Shown here: positions 518 through 9,350 of the stretch, one piece after another
How the letters are laid out: the number at the start of each line of letters is the position of its first letter
Position numbering within the stretch: position 1 is the first letter of the stretch
Assembly: GCA_044220955.1 (NCBI GenBank)
Contig: JBGAQA010000003.1
Coordinates: 98,448 to 108,597 of the forward strand
DNA from: Sandaracinaceae bacterium
Lineage (GTDB): Bacteria > Myxococcota_A > Polyangia > Polyangiales > Sandaracinaceae
DNA length: 10,150 nt
Direction of reading: 5' to 3'
Program-made: the position numbers and the translations under genes
The notes under the pieces: generated by a model
What the model saw: the letters and a program-made list of their open reading frames with translations, nothing else
Told to the model about the DNA's origin: nothing
Databases searched by the model: none

Positions 518-2368
518 TCAGCGCCGTCGGGGCGGCCGGCCGCCGCCGTCGGGACCGGGCCCGCGCTCGCGGCCGCGCGGAGGGCCGCGGTCCGGCGCCG
601 GACCACGGGGCGCGCGCTCGGGATCGAAGGGTCGGAAGCGCACGCGCGGATCGCGCGGATCGGGGCGCGCGCTCGCCTCGGCGAACGCCGCGGCGCGCTG
701 GGTCCGGACTTCGATGAGCGAGCTCGCCGGGCCGATCCGGATGGCGCCGACGTCGCGCGACTCGATGTCGCCGCGGCGGCAGGCGATGGCGAGCATGCGG
801 CGCGTGTCGGCGCCGTTGCGAGCGCCCCAGCTCACCTGGAACGTCACGAAGTCCTGGCTGGCCTCGGTGACCGGCAGCGGCGGGTGCTCGCGCGCGTCTC
901 GCGCCTCGCGCTCGCTCGGTTCGCGAGGCATCGGAGGTGGCATCTGCGTCTGCGGCGCGCGGCTCTCGTAGCGCTCCGTCTTCGGCGTTCGCTCGTTCGG
1001 GCGCGGCCGCTCCTCGCGCTCACGCTCGCGCGGCGGCGTGATCACCCGCACCTCGCGCGGCTCGGGCCCGCGCGTGATGCCCGTCTCGGCGAGCAGGCGC
1101 GCGAGTGCGCGCTGGGGCGAGCCCTTCTCGGCGATGCGCCCGGCGATCGCGGCGGTTCGCGCGTCGATCTCGATCGTCTCGTCGTCGCCCGTGAGCAGCT
1201 CCACGAGGCGGTCGTCCTCCATCTTGCGGATCTCGGCCGCCGTGGGCATCGGCAGCACGCGCGCGTGCACGCGGGCACCTCGGATGATGCGCTGCGCACG
1301 CGGGACCTCGCGCGGCGCGACGAGGACGGCGCTCGTGCCCTTCCTGCCGGCGCGGCCCGTGCGTCCGCTGCGGTGGGTGTACGAGTCGGAGTCGGTCGGC
1401 GCCTCCATGTGCAGCACGAGCGACACGTCGGAGACGTCGATGCCGCGCGCCGCGACGTCGGTCGCGACCAGGATGCGGAGCGAGCCGCGCTTGAACGCTG
1501 CGAGCGCGCGCGTCCGCTCGCGCTGCGCCATCTCGCCGCTGAGCGCCGCCACGGAGAACCCGGCGTCGCCGAGCGCCTCCGCCAGCTCCGCCACGCCGGC
1601 GCGCGTCTTGGCGAAGACGAGCGTGCGCGCCTCGGGGTGCGCGAGCAGCAGGTTCACGAGCGCGTCGAGCCGCTCGCTCGGGTCGACGAGGTAGACGACG
1701 TGCTCGATGTCCGCGTTCGCCACGCCGAGGCGCGTGCCCTCGACGTGAAGCGGGTCCTTCTGAACGCGGTCGGCCAGGCGCGCGACCTCGCGCTGGAAGG
1801 TCGCCGACACCAGGTGCGTGCGCCGGCCCTCGGGGATCCGCGCCAGGATCGTGTCGAGGGCCTCGGTGAAGCCCATGTCGAGCATCCGATCCGCCTCGTC
1901 GAGAACGACGGCGGCGATCGCGCTCGGGTCGAGCGAGCCGTTCTCGAGGTGATCGATCAGGCGGCCGGGCGTGCCCACGACGAGCGCCGGGAGCATCGCG
2001 AGCGCGCGGTGCTCGTCGCGGTAGCTGGCGCCCCCGGTGAGCGCCACGACCCGCGCGCCGAGCGGCGCGTAGAGCCAGCCGAGCTCCTCCTCGACCTGCC
2101 GGCCGAGCTCGCGGGTGGGCACGATGATCAGCGCGCGCGGCTTGGCCGCCTTGCTCGGCCGCGGCGAGGGCAGCATCACGAGGTCGCGCAGCACGAAGCC
2201 GATCGCGATCGTCTTGCCCGAGCCCGTCTGCGAGGTGATGCGCAGGTCGCGGCCGATCGCCATCGGGTCGAGCACGGCGTTCTGGACTGCCGTGAGCGTC
2301 GTGTAGCCTTTGCCCGTCAGCGCTTCGACCAGCGCCGGCCCGAGGGCCTCGGGGAGCTCGTGGCTCAA
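518..2368 (-). CDS. DEAD-box ATP-dependent RNA helicase with C-terminal DbpA-type RNA-binding domain (DeaD/CsdA-like), 616 aa
   Basis: Q motif GYTTLTAVQ, motif I SQTGSGKT, Ia PTRELGRQV, Ib GTPGRL, II DEADRMLDMGF, III SAT, V ATDVAARGID, VI HRSGRTGRAG. The C-terminal FQVSWGARNGAD...DVGAIRI...SLIEV segment resembles the DbpA domain. The TTG start overlaps the upstream TGA. Confidence 0.95.
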   Translation of the reverse strand: MSHELPEALGPALVEALTGKGYTTLTAVQNAVLDPMAIGRDLRITSQTGSGKTIAIGFVLRDLVMLPSPRPSKAAKPRALIIVPTRELGRQVEEELGWLYAPLGARVVALTGGASYRDEHRALAMLPALVVGTPGRLIDHLENGSLDPSAIAAVVLDEADRMLDMGFTEALDTILARIPEGRRTHLVSATFQREVARLADRVQKDPLHVEGTRLGVANADIEHVVYLVDPSERLDALVNLLLAHPEARTLVFAKTRAGVAELAEALGDAGFSVAALSGEMAQRERTRALAAFKRGSLRILVATDVAARGIDVSDVSLVLHMEAPTDSDSYTHRSGRTGRAGRKGTSAVLVAPREVPRAQRIIRGARVHARVLPMPTAAEIRKMEDDRLVELLTGDDETIEIDARTAAIAGRIAEKGSPQRALARLLAETGITRGPEPREVRVITPPREREREERPRPNERTPKTERYESRAPQTQMPPPMPREPSEREARDAREHPPLPVTEASQDFVTFQVSWGARNGADTRRMLAIACRRGDIESRDVGAIRIGPASSLIEVRTQRAAAFAEASARPDPRDPRVRFRPFDPERAPRGPAPDRGPPRGRERGPGPDGGGRPPRRR

Positions 2369-3405
2369 TGGGCTGCCGCCGGGGCGACGTGGATGCGCGA
2401 CCCACGACCCGCGCGCGGGCGCGTGCGCGCGCGCTCGGTGCCGATCGCGAAGGGAGGTGGACGGTTGGGATCGCAGTCGGGCCCGAAGCCGGTCGCGTCG
2501 AACTCGTACGTGAGCCGGCCGCTCGCCTCGGGCGTGACGGCCTCGACGCTCACGCGGTGCTGGCCGGCACGCGCGGGGCTGCAGTAGCTCAGCAGGTAGA
2601 AGCGCTGGGTCATCTCCACGATGCGCGCGCCGACCTGGCGGAACGCCTCGGTGATGGCCTCCGAGTCGGCGACGAGCACGTAGCCGTCGCGCCCGACGTC
2701 ACCGAGCGTGCCCTCGTCGATCTCGGTTCCGACGCCGATCGCGAACACGTCGTACGCGCTCTGGTCGATGGCGTGCCCCATGTCGTGGCGCGACACGCGC
2801 GCGGCGTGGTCCGTTCCGTCGGTGAACACGACGAGCGTCCCGAAGCGGAGAGGGACGACCGAGTGCGAGAGCGCCTCGTCCAGGGTCGCGAGGCCGGCGA
2901 CGACCGCGCCGTGGAGGTTCGTCGACGGATCGTCGGGGTGGAAGCCGCCGAGGCGCGCCACGCCGGCCGTCGCGCCGCCCTCGGTCGTGAAGCCCACGAT
3001 CTCGTGGATGTCCTCCGCGCCGTCGAACGCGAACACCGCGACGCGCTGGCTCGAGCCCTCGACCTGCGAGACGAGCTCGGTGGCTGCGGCCTGCAGGGCA
3101 GGGACCTGATCGCTCTCGGTGATGCTGCCGCTCATGTCGACGAGCAGCAGGGTGTAGTGCTCGGCCGCGACCTCGGGGTTCACGATCGTCTGCTGGCTCT
3201 CCGTGGGCGAGACGAGCGAGCCGTCCTCGTAGATCCGGAAGTCCTCCGCGGTGAGGCCGCCGACGGGGTCGCCGTTCGCCGCGTCGACCGTGAAGTAGAC
3301 GGCGACGTTGCTGGGACGCTGGTAGGCCGAGTCGACCACCGTGAGGCGCAGCCCCACGCAACCAGCCAGCAATCCGACGAGGGTGATCGCGAGTGAGCGG
3401 CGCAC
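2365..3405 (-). CDS. VWA-domain lipoprotein, about 346 aa
   Basis: C-terminal part of ORF 2365..3798. The likely start is GTG at 3405 (MRRSLAITLVGLLAGC, canonical LAGC lipobox). MIDAS elements are LLVDMSGS, STNLHGAV and VVFTDG. The N-terminal VYFTVDAANGDPVGGLTAEDFRIYEDG and C-terminal YLLSYCSP segments are typical of the beta-sandwich that flanks bacterial VWA domains. Confidence 0.88.
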   Translation of the reverse strand: MRRSLAITLVGLLAGCVGLRLTVVDSAYQRPSNVAVYFTVDAANGDPVGGLTAEDFRIYEDGSLVSPTESQQTIVNPEVAAEHYTLLLVDMSGSITESDQVPALQAAATELVSQVEGSSQRVAVFAFDGAEDIHEIVGFTTEGGATAGVARLGGFHPDDPSTNLHGAVVAGLATLDEALSHSVVPLRFGTLVVFTDGTDHAARVSRHDMGHAIDQSAYDVFAIGVGTEIDEGTLGDVGRDGYVLVADSEAITEAFRQVGARIVEMTQRFYLLSYCSPARAGQHRVSVEAVTPEASGRLTYEFDATGFGPDCDPNRPPPFAIGTERARTRPRAGRGSRIHVAPAAAH

Positions 3406-3428
3406 GGCCGCGACCTTAGCAGCCCCGG

Positions 3429-3860
3429 TCAGCGACTGCCTGCCACGGGGTGCAAGAACATCAGGCGGGCCACCAGCCAGGTCGTCCACGCGGCCCATGC
3501 CAGGCCGCCGACGAAGAAGAGGAGCCCACCGATCGTGTAGCCCCAGCCGCCGCCGTCCATGTGCGCGAACACGTCGAGTCCGTAGTCGAAGAGCGCGCCG
3601 ACCAGGACCATCGTCATCCCGAAGCCGACGACCGTCAGCATCGCGGCGAAGAAGAGCTGCGTCATCGCCCGCCACACGCTGATCGAGTCGAAGCTGGCGC
3701 TGCATCCGCCGCAGCGGTGCATGTACGTGCGGCCGGTCGGCAGTCCACGGCTGTAGTGCTGCGTCACGTGCACGACCGTCACCGAGGGCGCGGAGCACTT
3801 GGCGCAGCGACGGATCTCACGACAGCGCGCGTCGTTGGAAGTGTCGATCTCGCCCCACAT
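3429..3860 (-). CDS. Hypothetical membrane protein with N-terminal zinc-ribbon-like region, 143 aa
   Basis: Hidden as the tail of ORF 3429..5483, with ATG at 3860, 17 nt after the dehydrogenase stop. Motifs CAKC and CGGC are followed by two hydrophobic segments (LFFAAMLTVVGFGMTMVLVGALF and WGYTIGGLLFFVGGLAWAAWTTWLV). It fills the gap between its neighbours without overlap. Confidence 0.8.
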   Translation of the reverse strand: MWGEIDTSNDARCREIRRCAKCSAPSVTVVHVTQHYSRGLPTGRTYMHRCGGCSASFDSISVWRAMTQLFFAAMLTVVGFGMTMVLVGALFDYGLDVFAHMDGGGWGYTIGGLLFFVGGLAWAAWTTWLVARLMFLHPVAGSR

Positions 3861-5199: not shown

Positions 5200-5228
5200 A
5201 TTGACGCCGTGTCGGGGCCCGTGTCAAT
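5200..5228. promoter_or_regulatory. Dyad ATTGAC-N17-GTCAAT in the divergent intergenic region; candidate bidirectional promoter or operator
   Basis: Plus strand reads TTGACG-N17-TCAATG and minus strand reads TTGACA-N17-TCAATC. The -35 hexamers are perfect or near-perfect, but the -10 matches are poor. Confidence 0.4.
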
Positions 5229-5277: not shown

Positions 5278-6282
5278 ATGCAGCTTCCCGACCTCGCCTC
5301 GAAGGGCTCGCTCGCCGCGGCCGCGCTCACGTGCGCGCTCGCGCTCGCGGCGACGTCCGACGCGGGCGCCGACGCCGTCACGCGCGTGTTCATCAACGGC
5401 CAGCCGACGCCGGTGAGCTTCAACGACGGCGACAGCTTCCGCCCGAGCGACGGAGAGATCGCCGGGCAGCAGTGCCGTCTCATCGGCTACAACACGCTCG
5501 AGAGCTTCGGCCCCGCGCACCAGTGGGGCGACTGGCACCCCTACGAGCTCTACGTGCTGGCGAAGATGGCGACGCTCCACGCGCGCCGCGGCACCTGGCA
5601 CTGCTCGTTCGACGGCCAGTTCGACACGTACGGACGAGCGGCGCTCGACTGTCCCGACCTCGCGGTCGACATGATCCGCCACGGCTACGCGATGGCGTAC
5701 ATGGTCGACGATCACGCCTCGCGTCCCGAGTACCTCCGCGCGCAGCGAGAGGCGATCCGCGCGCGTCGCGGCATCTGGGCGCACGGCGTGCCCGAGTTCG
5801 TGATGACCTCCGTGCACAGCTTCGACGAAGATCGCGACCGCGAGTGGCACTACAACCGCCTCATCTCGACGCGGGACGGCCACAGCGAGAGCATGCAGCA
5901 CCGCGACACGTACGCGGAGTGCCAGTGGGTGTGCAACGTCGAGACCGTCGTCGACGAGCTCGCAGCGCGCAGCGAGGCGCGTGCGCTCCGCGCGGACCCG
6001 GTGACGGGCCCCCTCGTCGCGACCCTCTCGAACCTGGTCGTCACGGAGTTCGTCTCTCGCTTCGCACGCCGCGGCGAGCTGCCCGCCTACGCCGACGCGG
6101 CAGGCCGCGACGCGATCACGGCGCGCCTCACGGCCGACGGGCGCGTCGCCACGCACGAGCAGCGCGGCTCGTGCGGGATCTACGTTCCCTTCGAGCGCCG
6201 CTACGGCCGCAATCGGGCACACTGTCTCGACGGTCACGGGACCGTCCCGCCCGATCTCGAGGGTCGCTGGGGTCACCACTGA
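5278..6282 (+). CDS. Secreted thermonuclease (SNase-like) family protein with Cys-containing C-terminal extension, about 334 aa
   Basis: Signal-peptide-like N-terminus (KGSLAAAALTCALALAATSDAGA-D). SNase motifs occur in order: NDGDSF, RLIGYNTLES, DTYGR, MIRHGYA, AQREAIRARRGIW. The start could be ATG 5278 or the in-frame ATG 5227. Confidence 0.8.
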   Translation: MQLPDLASKGSLAAAALTCALALAATSDAGADAVTRVFINGQPTPVSFNDGDSFRPSDGEIAGQQCRLIGYNTLESFGPAHQWGDWHPYELYVLAKMATLHARRGTWHCSFDGQFDTYGRAALDCPDLAVDMIRHGYAMAYMVDDHASRPEYLRAQREAIRARRGIWAHGVPEFVMTSVHSFDEDRDREWHYNRLISTRDGHSESMQHRDTYAECQWVCNVETVVDELAARSEARALRADPVTGPLVATLSNLVVTEFVSRFARRGELPAYADAAGRDAITARLTADGRVATHEQRGSCGIYVPFERRYGRNRAHCLDGHGTVPPDLEGRWGHH

Positions 6283-7664
6283 TGCGCGCCGCGGCTCTCC
6301 TCGCGACGAGCACGCTGGTCTTCGCCGGCTGCTTCACCCTCAGCCCGAACGGGCCGCCGCGCGGCTACGAGCGCGACGACGTCAGCTGCTCGGACAACAC
6401 CGACAACGACTTCGACCGCCTCGTCGACTGCCGTGATCCCGACTGCCTGATGGGCGGCTTCTGCGGCGAGCGCACGTCGCTCGACCCCGATCCGCACCCC
6501 GAGAACACGTTCGACCGCTGCGTCGATCGCATCGACAACGACCTCGACGGCAACTTCGACTGCGGCGACTCCGACTGTCTGCAGATCCTCGAGGTCTGCT
6601 GCACGCTCGAGTTCGACAACGAGAGCTGCAGCAACGGGCGCGACGACGACCAGAACCAGTTCGCCGACTGCCGCGACCACAGCTGCAGCCAGGCGGCCGT
6701 GTCGTTCATCACCGTCTGCGCCGCCGAGACCGTCTGCGACGACGGTCTCGACAACGACGGCGACCGCGACACGGACTGCGCCGATCGGGACTGCGCGATG
6801 GCTGCGGCGTGCGTCGAGCGAGACTGCGGCAACGGCGCCGACGACGACCGCGACGCTCGCACCGACTGCCAGGACTCCGACTGCTTCACGGCGCCCGGCT
6901 GCCCTGCCGGGAACGAGCACTCGCTCGCCGAGTGCAGCGACGGGATCGACAACGACCACAACACGTACGTCGACTGCGTCGACCGCGGCTGCACCAACGC
7001 GAGCAACGGCGCGAGCGCCGAGGCCATCGCCTACTGCGCCATGCACGCCGAGCACACGCTCGCCGAGTGCAGCGACCGAGTCGACAACGACGGCAACCGC
7101 TACGTCGACTGCGCCGATCGCGGCTGCTCGCAGGCGGCCAACGGCGCGAGCCCCGAGGCCGTCGCGCGCTGCGCCGAGATCGCCGAGAGCACGCTCGCCA
7201 AGTGCAGCGACCGGATCGACAACGACGGCAACGGCTACACGGACTGCGCGGACAACAGCTGCTCGATGAGCATGGACTTCGACATCATCGCGTACTGCCG
7301 GATGCACACGGAGGCCACGTTCGCGACCTGCACCGACGGCATCGACAACGACGACAACCGGTATGCCGACTGCGCCGACCGCTCCTGCCGCACCGTCGCC
7401 GACACCGATCCGGACACCGGCCGCATCCGTACGCCCTGCCAGGAGAGCGTGTCGCCGGCCGACTGTTCGGACGGCTTCGACAACGACCGCGACGGCTTCA
7501 CCGACTGCGAAGACTGGGACTGCAACTACAACCCGGCGACGCAGGCGAGCTGCCTCGCGGCCCGCGGCGCCCGCGGGCTGGTCTGCGGCACCCCCGACTA
7601 CGTCCTGCACCCGCGCGACGCGGGAGCCGCCCCGGGTGACGCGGGCGCCGACGCGGGCCTCTGA
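6282..7664 (+). CDS. Lipoprotein composed of 10 Cys/Asp-rich putative Ca2+-binding repeats, 460 aa
   Basis: C-terminal part of ORF 5331..7664. ATG 6282 overlaps the nuclease stop (TGATG). MRAAALLATSTLVFAGC is a lipoprotein signal with Cys17. There are ten C-x-[DN]-x-x-D-[ND]-D-x-[DN]-x-x-x-D-C-x-D-x-x-C units and a DAG-rich tail. Confidence 0.88.
   Translation: MRAAALLATSTLVFAGCFTLSPNGPPRGYERDDVSCSDNTDNDFDRLVDCRDPDCLMGGFCGERTSLDPDPHPENTFDRCVDRIDNDLDGNFDCGDSDCLQILEVCCTLEFDNESCSNGRDDDQNQFADCRDHSCSQAAVSFITVCAAETVCDDGLDNDGDRDTDCADRDCAMAAACVERDCGNGADDDRDARTDCQDSDCFTAPGCPAGNEHSLAECSDGIDNDHNTYVDCVDRGCTNASNGASAEAIAYCAMHAEHTLAECSDRVDNDGNRYVDCADRGCSQAANGASPEAVARCAEIAESTLAKCSDRIDNDGNGYTDCADNSCSMSMDFDIIAYCRMHTEATFATCTDGIDNDDNRYADCADRSCRTVADTDPDTGRIRTPCQESVSPADCSDGFDNDRDGFTDCEDWDCNYNPATQASCLAARGARGLVCGTPDYVLHPRDAGAAPGDAGADAGL
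6915..7388 (+). repeat. Intragenic tandem repeat: units start at 6915, 7050, 7185 (135-bp period) and 7311 (126 bp later, more diverged)
   Basis: The first three units share CGCTCGCC[G/A]AGTGCAGCGAC...TCGACAACGAC. The proteins read EHSLAECSDGIDND, EHTLAECSDRVDND, ESTLAKCSDRIDND and EATFATCTDGIDND. The end coordinate is approximate. Confidence 0.85.
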
Positions 7665-7715
7665 CTCCGCCGTCCTGTTCGACCGTTCGATCGACCCCCT
7701 CGAGAGCCGACACGC

Positions 7716-9350
7716 ATGCACTCCGCCGCCTCCGTTCGAAAGCACCTGATCGTCCTCTGCGCGACGTTGCTCGTCGCCGCGCCTGCCACGGCGCAGACCG
7801 AGCCGCCCCAGGAGATCCTCTCTCCGGTGCTGCCGGCCACGTCTTCGGCGGGACCGACCACCGAGGCCAATTGTGGCGACCGCCTCGACGACGATCACGA
7901 CGGACTGGCCGACTGCGGCGATGCCGACTGCTTCGAGTCGCCGAGCTGCGAGGCGGGCGGCAACGACGAGAACACCGAGGCGGCGTGCCGCGACTGGCTC
8001 GACAACGACGGGGACGGCTTCACGGACTGCGACGATCAGGACTGCCAGGTGCAGGAGATCCGCGCATGTCGCGGCAGCTGGGCGGGTGCGTCGTCGGCCG
8101 CGACGTCGAGCAGCCAGGGCGGCGACGACCTGCCCGAGCTCGGACCGGGGCAGAGCCTCGAGGATCTCATCGGCTCGGGCACCGACCGTGACGGAGAGCG
8201 CAGCGACGAGACGTGCTCGGACGGCATCGACAACGACCTCGACGGCGCGATGGACTGCGCCGACATCGGCTGCCGCTTCGATCCCTCCGTGACCGTCTGC
8301 CAGTCGCACGCCGGGATCCGCTTCTCCGTGGTCGCGGGTGCCGGCGCGCGCCTGACGCTCAACTACAACCTCGACGGCTCGTACGCGGGCAACCGGCCGG
8401 AGGGCGGCATCACGCTCATCCAGCTCCGGGCGCTCGGTCAGATCCCCGGGATCCAGAACTCGTTCTTCTTGCTCAGCGCGCGGCTCGACGACTCGTTCCG
8501 CCTCTCCTTCGTCACGTTCCAGATCCCGATCAGCTCCCGCGGCCACTACCTCGGGATGAACAGCGGCTCGGGCACGCTCTCGACCATCCGCATCATCTCG
8601 GCCGCGCGGCAGCTCTTCCTCGACCCGGCGAACTACCTCGCGTCCGCGTTCGAGCAGGGCAACGGCGTCGTGGTCGAGACGGGCGGTCCGATCGACGACG
8701 ACGGCAGGGTGCGCTTCCGGCTCTTCGGCGCCGTCGGGTCGAACCAGTTCTCGAGCTCGGTCGGCGGGCGCTTCTTCAGCGCCGACGATCGCAACTTCGC
8801 CTGGACGGTCGGTGGCGCGCTGCAGCTCGACGTGGCCGGGCACTACGATCGCATCGGCGACAACCCGTACCTGTACACGCCCGTCCCGCTCAACGTGTCG
8901 TTCCTCGCGGGCGTGAAGTTCGACACGCTGCCGAACGAGCAGGCGCTCGCCTGGCACGCGCTCGGCGTGTTCCGCTTCTGGCACTTCGAGCTGCGGGCCG
9001 AGAGCTACTCGCGCTACGTCATGGACTACGGCGCGTTCCAGACGGCCTACAACGTGATGCTCGCCGCGCTCGTCGTGCCGCGCGCGCTGCTGCTCGCCGC
9101 CGACATCGGCGGCTTCTACCACCCGATCGGCTACAGCAACCTGCCGACGAGCTCCTCCGCGATGACGCCAGCCGGCGTCACCTACCAGCCGGAGCTGCTC
9201 CAGTACCGCGCCGCGGTGCACTGGTTCTTCTACCGGAACGTCGGGATCCTCTCGCTCGTGTACGCGGGCACCCAGCGCGAGCACGTCGACGGCGCGCTCG
9301 TCTCCGACGTCGAGCACGTCGTCCGCGTCGAGTCGCGGTTCCGTTTTTGA
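7716..9350 (+). CDS. Probable outer-membrane beta-barrel (Porin O/P-like layout) with three N-terminal Cys/Asp-rich repeats, 544 aa
   Basis: Sec signal RKHLIVLCATLLVAAPATA-Q. Repeats are CGDRLDDDHDGLADCGDADC, CRDWLDNDGDGFTDCDDQDC and CSDGIDNDLDGAMDCADIGC. A Cys-free region of about 345 aa follows, with alternating amphipathic strands, and ends in VRVESRFRF with the terminal Phe typical of BAM substrates. Confidence 0.8.
   Translation: MHSAASVRKHLIVLCATLLVAAPATAQTEPPQEILSPVLPATSSAGPTTEANCGDRLDDDHDGLADCGDADCFESPSCEAGGNDENTEAACRDWLDNDGDGFTDCDDQDCQVQEIRACRGSWAGASSAATSSSQGGDDLPELGPGQSLEDLIGSGTDRDGERSDETCSDGIDNDLDGAMDCADIGCRFDPSVTVCQSHAGIRFSVVAGAGARLTLNYNLDGSYAGNRPEGGITLIQLRALGQIPGIQNSFFLLSARLDDSFRLSFVTFQIPISSRGHYLGMNSGSGTLSTIRIISAARQLFLDPANYLASAFEQGNGVVVETGGPIDDDGRVRFRLFGAVGSNQFSSSVGGRFFSADDRNFAWTVGGALQLDVAGHYDRIGDNPYLYTPVPLNVSFLAGVKFDTLPNEQALAWHALGVFRFWHFELRAESYSRYVMDYGAFQTAYNVMLAALVVPRALLLAADIGGFYHPIGYSNLPTSSSAMTPAGVTYQPELLQYRAAVHWFFYRNVGILSLVYAGTQREHVDGALVSDVEHVVRVESRFRF

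Follow-up and report, generated by a model that had tools for sequence, protein, structure and literature searches.

A conserved Myxococcota gene trio encoding an exported nuclease-fold protein, a teneurin-type repeat lipoprotein and a predicted porin: a candidate module for nucleic-acid scavenging

Introduction

The Sus systems of Bacteroidota and the chitin uptake of Vibrio scavenge polymers by combining a hydrolase with a lipoprotein and an outer-membrane channel. Myxobacteria lyse other cells as prey and are exposed to DNA and RNA released in large amounts; to our knowledge, the passage of nucleic acid across the myxobacterial outer membrane has not been worked out. Here we describe a locus in a 10,150-nucleotide (nt) stretch of the genome of a Sandaracinaceae bacterium (contig JBGAQA010000003.1, positions 98,448 to 108,597; hereafter the window), where three genes for an exported staphylococcal-nuclease-fold protein (gene 1), a repeat lipoprotein (gene 2) and a predicted outer-membrane barrel (gene 3) follow one another in an order that is kept across Myxococcota.

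Each part of this trio belongs to or resembles a known kind of protein, with the barrel family as yet lacking a model. We found no description of the combination in the open literature, outside supplements and subscription papers, and no paper there that mentions the repeat family NF033662 by name or accession. Staphylococcal nuclease requires D21, R35, D40, E43 and R87 for activity (bioRxiv 2021.10.25.465661), and Asp19, Asp21 and Asp40 have been named as active-site residues (PMC4776130). The C-rich domain of teneurin-4 binds three Ca2+ ions, two of them in the fashion of thrombospondin-3 (PMC9058538). A diatom enzyme and the metal motif of MopE have both been compared with the teneurin motif (PMC3278476, PMC6425310), a diatom or algal source has been proposed for the C-rich domain (PMC3278476), and Myxococcota is the phylum where teneurin-like proteins are commonest (PMC13018210). 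A preprint on gene transfer and cysteine-rich repeats (10.64898/2026.06.07.730663) has no bearing on the trio. A bacterial resemblance of the teneurin motif is known in general terms; the available sections of these papers draw no link to myxobacterial repeat arrays.

Results

Three genes kept in one order

A full-length homologue of the barrel was found in 28 of 40 relatives, and the nuclease in those same 28. In 27 of them nuclease, repeat protein and barrel follow one another in this order on one contig, and in genome G011 the trio is split at contig ends. We then considered a sample of 401 Myxococcota genomes, partly incomplete and related to one another. The barrel profile matched 60 of these, once each, and had no match in 341. 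The nuclease profile matched 95, and its 60 best matches (E 1e-85 or better) fell in exactly the 60 barrel genomes. The nuclease lies at most 3.5 kb upstream of the barrel on the same strand in 57 of the 60; it is on another contig in the other three, where the fetched contig ends bear the repeat gene or pieces of it. Gene order was invariant in all 61 fetched loci with both genes, from 19 families, and a repeat open reading frame (ORF) was always present; the genes flanking the trio differ from family to family. Starts were called crudely; on these calls, 27 of 58 loci show an overlap between genes 1 and 2. As the sequence-only reading had proposed, the three genes are one unit: synteny across the sample rules out chance adjacency and confirms the trio as a conserved, single-copy, operon-like unit of Myxococcota.

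The remaining 54 nuclease matches (E 8e-72 or weaker) form a sister set, and 35 genomes have these only. No barrel or multi-repeat ORF was found near them in 21 loci, which hold the 22 of the 54 nucleases that were fetched. On a quick, unrooted tree the 65 linked and 22 unlinked nucleases lie on opposite sides of one branch with a Shimodaira-Hasegawa-like approximate likelihood ratio (SH-aLRT) support of 99. The expectation that such nucleases do not usually occur without the other two genes therefore holds for the high-scoring set, all 60 of which are in barrel genomes, and fails for the unlinked sister clade. Since the repeat is common in the same genome (21 six-frame ORFs), its sharing by genes 2 and 3 is weak evidence of partnership; the strong evidence is the synteny.

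In one low-contig-count assembly (G014, L033:5240-9061) the repeat and barrel genes are in frameshifted pieces, likely through sequencing error.

Locus architecture and export signals

A check of the ORFs agreed with the earlier description of the locus as a co-oriented trio between a divergent and a convergent gene (Table 1), with genes 1 and 2 coupled by TGATG at 6280-6284 and 51 nt between genes 2 and 3. Although the gene 1 ORF has its first in-frame start at GTG 5128, the alignment with homologues begins at ATG 5278. Export signals had been ascribed to all three proteins and, judged by eye rather than with a predictor, they are present: gene 1 has a hydrophobic N-terminus ending AGA-DA, gene 2 a lipobox FAG-C17, and gene 3 a signal ending ATA-Q27 together with a C-terminal Phe. 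All 64 homologous repeat proteins keep the lipobox Cys, which was recognised by pattern in 62 of them and by eye in 2.

Table 1. Coordinates of the trio, its parts and its flanks in the window
Feature	Position	Strand	Remarks
Divergent acyl-CoA dehydrogenase	start 5041	-	flank upstream of trio
TTGACG, likely -35 element of a primary-sigma promoter	5201..5206	+	conserved upstream motif
Gene 1, exported staphylococcal-nuclease-fold protein	5278..6282	+	334 residues
Gene 2, lipoprotein with ten acidic double-disulfide repeats	6282..7664	+	460 residues
Ten-repeat array of gene 2	6387-7523	+	NF033662
Gene 3, outer-membrane protein with predicted 16-strand porin barrel	7716..9350	+	544 residues
Three repeats on N-terminal arm of gene 3	7872..8273	+	NF033662, strict pattern
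Predicted 16-strand barrel	about 8319-9347	+	structure model, long third loop, C-terminal Phe
GlgC-like nucleotidyltransferase, convergent	ends 9357	-	flank downstream of trio

Upstream, at 518-3860 on the minus strand, the window has genes for a small zinc-ribbon membrane protein, a VWA-domain putative lipoprotein and a DEAD-box helicase with a DbpA domain, a run common to the closest relatives only. Barrels 85% identical to gene 3 in named records belong to Sandaracinaceae metagenome-assembled genomes; another barrel of 85% identity is on a 3178-bp contig labelled Acidimicrobiia (L016), which is probably misbinned.

A nuclease fold with an altered active site

Gene 1 matched the Pfam family SNase (PF00565) at 23.8 bits against a cut-off of 21, and the profile of its family matched thermonuclease structures (E 6.5e-4). 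In the structure model (predicted local distance difference test, pLDDT, 95.7), all 50 listed Foldseek matches were staphylococcal nuclease (best E 4.6e-5), with template-modelling (TM) scores to the target of about 0.53-0.66. The proposed staphylococcal nuclease fold is therefore borne out by profiles and predicted model alike. The motif residues are D50-G-D52, R67, N72 (for D40), E75, D116 and R120. D52, R67, E75 and R120, which correspond to D21, R35, E43 and R87, do not vary in any of the 87 homologues, nor does the D19 equivalent; the DxYGR motif is invariant or nearly so, and the P42 equivalent is Leu in 86 of the 87. A C-terminal extension of about 165 residues carries invariant H180, E184, R194 and H208 plus four Cys, and a helical insert within it is variably present. 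H81, H180, E184, R194 and H208 are invariant in the linked and unlinked clades alike. Since D40 changes are the mildest among active-site changes of staphylococcal nuclease, catalysis by gene 1 is plausible, not assured, on this residue pattern. We rejected the idea that the repeats compensate for the D40N change, as this change is also found in the unlinked clade, which has no repeat partners.

In the family labelled f54 the unlinked nuclease consists of two domains within a single frame, arising by tandem duplication (L061:5366-7559, genome G198), and double matches of this kind also occur in G134, G318 and G396.

Acidic repeats of the teneurin C-rich type

The claim that genes 2 and 3 share one repeat module in 10 and 3 copies held: a strict pattern found these numbers, with 0 matches in 10,000 shuffles of each protein, and NF033662 (acid_disulf_rpt) of NCBIfam matched 10 and 3 stretches at 249.6 and 88.8 bits (cut-off 41). 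The gene 2 protein has 43 Cys, 99 Asp plus Glu and a net charge of about -67, and a Pfam scan found no match in it; no catalytic domain was found. Its best match in the PDB was the teneurin-4 C-rich domain 7PLP (E 1.7e-5 by profile, 4.7e-4 by single sequence). Matches of the repeat protein to EF-hands and a viral protease were judged compositional or due to chance.

We compared the repeats with the published ligand positions D840, D843, N844, D845, D847, D851, D854 and D856 (PMC9058538). The Cys spacing is identical, and the eight side-chain Ca2+ ligand positions are D, N or E in 8 of 8 cases in seven of the window's 13 repeats and in 7 of 8 in the other six. Among 631 repeats from 63 homologous lipoproteins, positions +2, +5, +7 and +9 are 99-100% D or N; the last ligand position is D in 33%, in a set selected for D at +13 or +16. 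The six Cys in three disulfides and the E835 at -3 of the teneurin domain are not reproduced: units mostly have four Cys, and Glu is at -3 in 4 of the 13 repeats and at -6 or -7 in the other 9. The repeat is thus a homologue of the teneurin C-rich core, not a complete domain, and the prediction that it binds Ca2+ is well founded. The sequence-only reading had cast the repeats as a Ca2+-loaded scaffold; Ca2+ binding stands by homology, and the type is now teneurin C-rich or thrombospondin-3. Each repeat is predicted to take up two to three ions, and Ca2+ loading would offset much of the lipoprotein's charge. As calcium also stabilises the teneurin domain, these data suggest a rigid rod rather than a DNA-binding surface for gene 2.

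The repeat was present in four of four tested genomes without the barrel and in none of 14 control genomes; it is a general module of the phylum Myxococcota. The 19 other repeat ORFs of the window's genome (L108-L124) include ones with a papain-like protease plus P-domain, VWA/integrin-beta domains and MopE-type motifs; 11 of 17 scanned had no Pfam match, and one frame of 1458 residues has 17 copies. The barrel-less genome G047 has repeat-rich frames of 2400 (C222:23146-29592) and 1757 residues (C233:38452-42282) and at least 145 repeat matches in all. In genome G326 a convergent neighbour of the barrel (L085:3060-4676) combines MopE-type metal motifs with NHL or teneurin-NHL repeats.

A porin-type barrel without a family model

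Gene 3 was modelled (pLDDT 81.6) as a 16-strand barrel in which strand 5 is followed by a long loop. The top Foldseek matches were Omp32, chitoporin, PorB and OprP (E 3.5e-10 to 4.3e-9) at 7-12% identity, the best being an anion-selective porin; OprP had the highest query TM-score (0.48) and ranked seventh by E-value. The Atlas language-model likeness to Porin_O_P clusters was 0.95. These results uphold the assignment of gene 3 as a porin-type barrel. The barrel profile had one match, a chance one, among PDB sequences, and the family, 54 clusters at 50% identity among 1.84 billion, has no Pfam or NCBIfam model.

Inward-facing residues were deduced from strand alternation in 65 sequences. The conserved basic residues are R238 (98%), R256 (86%), R335 (100%), K/R401 (98%), K/R433 (100%) and R498 (100%). 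The model is consistent with a constricted, possibly anion-preferring pore, not necessarily a phosphate-specific one. Three arm repeats are present in 40 of 51 aligned homologues and, since the strand count is even, the arm should be periplasmic. Four homologues with 33-38% identity (P0015, P0016, P0018 and P0020) have no repeat arm; none of their loci was found in two metagenome scans.

Promoter region

Of 63 upstream regions of homologous loci, 27 have TTGACA, where random windows gave 1.7, and TTGAC stands at a comparable distance in 40 of the 63 against 361 of 4996 genes of the window's genome (7-10% of its genes at a similar distance). Upstream of gene 1 there is no full sigma-70 match, and the -10 element is weak. 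No dyad is shared by more than 7 of the 63 regions and, apart from a GTCAT repeat with a 12-bp period in 5 of them, nothing resembles a shared operator. As the TTGAC -35 box is conserved, the upstream sequences suggest constitutive rather than phosphate-induced expression. A test of induction under phosphate limitation had been suggested earlier; no phosphate-starvation motif stood out in the 63 regions, in a search made without a myxobacterial Pho consensus. An inverted repeat, ATTGAC-N17-GTCAAT, spans the putative promoter at 5200-5228; it may be due to chance, because in the closest relatives the second arm reads GTCAT.

DNA-handling neighbours in some lineages

In 25 of the 28 genomes of the family labelled f32, a same-strand ComEC gene follows directly downstream of the barrel, after gaps of 72-359 nt; in the other three it is on a different contig. 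In 13 f32 loci an ExbB gene and two ExbD genes stand upstream of the nuclease, which could, we assume, be a gliding-motor cluster. A search of 71 trio genomes found ComEC in 69, and 10 of 14 control genomes have it as well. Seventeen fetched loci encode, behind the barrel, a canonical SNase lipoprotein with Asp40 intact: 16 of the 18 trio genomes of the window's family outside its genus and one genome of another family. It is directly next to the barrel in 13 called loci, with a stop/start overlap in 4. In the window's genus this lipoprotein is encoded elsewhere. The ComEC and second-nuclease links are one evolutionary event each, both involving DNA at the envelope. In genome G135 (L069:2996-4900) the nuclease has, immediately upstream, genes for a divergent five-repeat protein and for an exonuclease-endonuclease-phosphatase.

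Discussion

We tentatively favour the reading that the trio is an envelope module of housekeeping type that scavenges extracellular nucleic acid. Linkage, gene order, predicted folds and residue conservation are direct results; degradation and import of nucleic acid are what we infer. In favour of this reading are the linkage and order of the genes, the invariant catalytic residues, the conserved basic residues predicted to face the lumen of a barrel whose top fold match is an anion-selective porin, and the second nuclease and ComEC found behind the barrel in some lineages. Lysis, or a surface nuclease such as the second SNase, would break up outside DNA or RNA, and short oligomers would enter through the porin across the outer membrane. 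The exported nuclease, probably periplasmic given its type of signal, would cut the incoming oligomers further, held near the pore by the Ca2+-loaded lipoprotein rod; a reversed geometry, with the enzyme outside, may also be envisaged. Since a 16-strand pore is too narrow for duplex DNA, the cargo would be nucleotides or short oligomers, and expression would be steady, from a primary-sigma promoter.

Several results weigh against nucleic-acid scavenging. The Ca2+ ligand D40 is replaced by Asn72 in 87 of 87 homologues, and D40E and D40G are reported to lower the activity of staphylococcal nuclease (bioRxiv 2021.10.25.465661). The sister-clade enzyme keeps its active-site residues without the partners, so that the nuclease needs neither rod nor pore. 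No fusion of nuclease, lipoprotein and barrel was seen among 120 listed of 182 longer nuclease homologues (334-402 residues) or in 8 longer barrel homologues (609-632 residues), which is weak evidence that none exists. Gene 3 had been linked to OprO/OprP in the sequence-only reading; its product had no match to PF07396 (OprO/P) at E 0.1, and no Pfam model, PF07396 included, matched any of 31 barrel members at E 1, so this membership is not borne out. Acidic lumen residues (E321, D403, E429 and D463) are also kept, as in general porins. A scan of 70 further flanking proteins (68 out of 106 picked, and two rescans) showed no common theme, and no nucleotide transporter or phosphatase recurs among them. 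ComEC is adjacent in none of the 31 genomes of the phylum sample outside f32 with both genes, and the ComEC and second-nuclease links are confined to single lineages, were noticed post hoc and are absent from the window's genus.

The neighbours invite another explanation, that the trio is a competence accessory working beside ComEC to take up DNA for recombination, in which the nuclease nicks incoming DNA in the periplasm and the barrel passes single-stranded DNA or releases degraded pieces. The same-strand ComEC and the ExbB/ExbD genes of f32, and the near-universal ComEC of trio genomes, speak for it. We consider it unlikely, as the ComEC link is limited to one lineage, the gaps do not prove co-transcription, ComEC in most control genomes means that co-presence says little, and a loop-constricted porin should not pass duplex DNA. 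Rather unlikely, too, is a role in clearing instead of feeding, in which a surface-exposed rod would display the nuclease on the cell exterior while the barrel served as an anchor and a general pore; the targets would be DNA or RNA outside the cell in which gliding cells become trapped, or phage or plasmid DNA on its way in. The housekeeping-type -35 element, the lack of linked salvage genes and the same repeat in protease- or VWA-domain proteins of the window's genome all suit such a role. PADLOC 2.0.0 gave no defence match for the three proteins at E 0.01, however, the trio is single-copy and, in contrast to mobile defence genes, its position within families is stable and of housekeeping type, and the gene 1 signal is of the cleavable type, with no anchor.

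As a further alternative, the D40N, P42L variant with its invariant His/Glu/Cys extension might be a repurposed nuclease that binds or hydrolyses a small phosphodiester, such as a nucleotide or a lipid head group, entering via a specific porin, and would serve as a periplasmic catcher or gate partner. N72 and the additional invariant residues H81, H180, E184, R194 and H208 of both clades, the weak Pfam score and the TM-scores fit this explanation, as does the second, canonical nuclease behind the barrel in Sandaracinaceae-level relatives, which would leave gene 1 able to do another job. It nevertheless seems quite unlikely, because the four other catalytic residues are invariant and DxYGR invariant or nearly so, as expected of a nucleic-acid phosphodiesterase. 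The earlier alternative that the barrel exports the lipoprotein, here widened to a dedicated exporter or insertase bringing the lipoprotein or nuclease to the surface, is very improbable: strict co-occurrence and the predicted periplasmic arm on a 16-strand barrel would suit it, but the 50 listed fold matches are solute porins or of FadL or MOMP type, with no Omp85, TpsB or Slam among them, and the long third loop fits a constricted pore.

What recommends the trio for study is its single copy, its one order across at least 19 families and its unmodelled barrel family, and a close nuclease homologue in the cultured Sandaracinus amylolyticus makes the system directly testable. For a repeat that is abundant in the phylum, our comparison offers a structural reading, arrays of a teneurin-type Ca2+ module, and such arrays in Myxococcota bear on the origin of the teneurin C-rich domain. 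In a bolder version, which we regard as improbable, a Ca2+-gated porin and teneurin-like rod would form an ancestral myxobacterial DNA-uptake complex that feeds nucleic acid to a dedicated periplasmic nuclease and, by way of ComEC, to the cytoplasm, and the repeats, not an algal enzyme, would be the source of the animal teneurin C-rich domain. If that were true, a DNA-uptake machine of a new type would link predation to feeding and gene acquisition.

Comparison with known systems

Gene 1 shares with staphylococcal nuclease and thermonuclease (PF00565) the predicted fold, DGD, R35, E43, DxYGR87 and an export signal; it differs in the Asn for D40, the Leu for P42, the C-terminal extension and its fixed linkage to a lipoprotein and a porin. 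The repeats (NF033662) agree with the teneurin C-rich domain 7PLP in three Cys at 0, +14 and +19 and in the spacing of the acidic Ca2+ ligands, and 4 of the 13 match the published core consensus up to the third Cys. They are arranged in tandem arrays of 3 and 10, whereas teneurin has one copy, and have four Cys per unit where teneurin has six; Ser or Gly often takes the place of D856, and the upstream Glu is usually at -6, not -3. The barrel is like the 16-strand porins Omp32, OprP/OprO, VhChiP and PorB in its 16 strands, long third loop, C-terminal Phe and conserved arginines on the first strands. Unlike them, it has no Pfam porin match, is 7-12% identical and carries a 150-residue N-terminal arm with three repeats predicted to bind Ca2+. 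As a whole, and judged from general knowledge, the trio resembles the Sus systems and Vibrio chitin uptake in that an exported hydrolase, an accessory lipoprotein and a channel are co-encoded; it departs from Sus-type modules in having a porin instead of a TonB-dependent transporter, an acidic repeat rod instead of a SusD-type lid, and no linked regulator or inner-membrane transporter seen at the trio.

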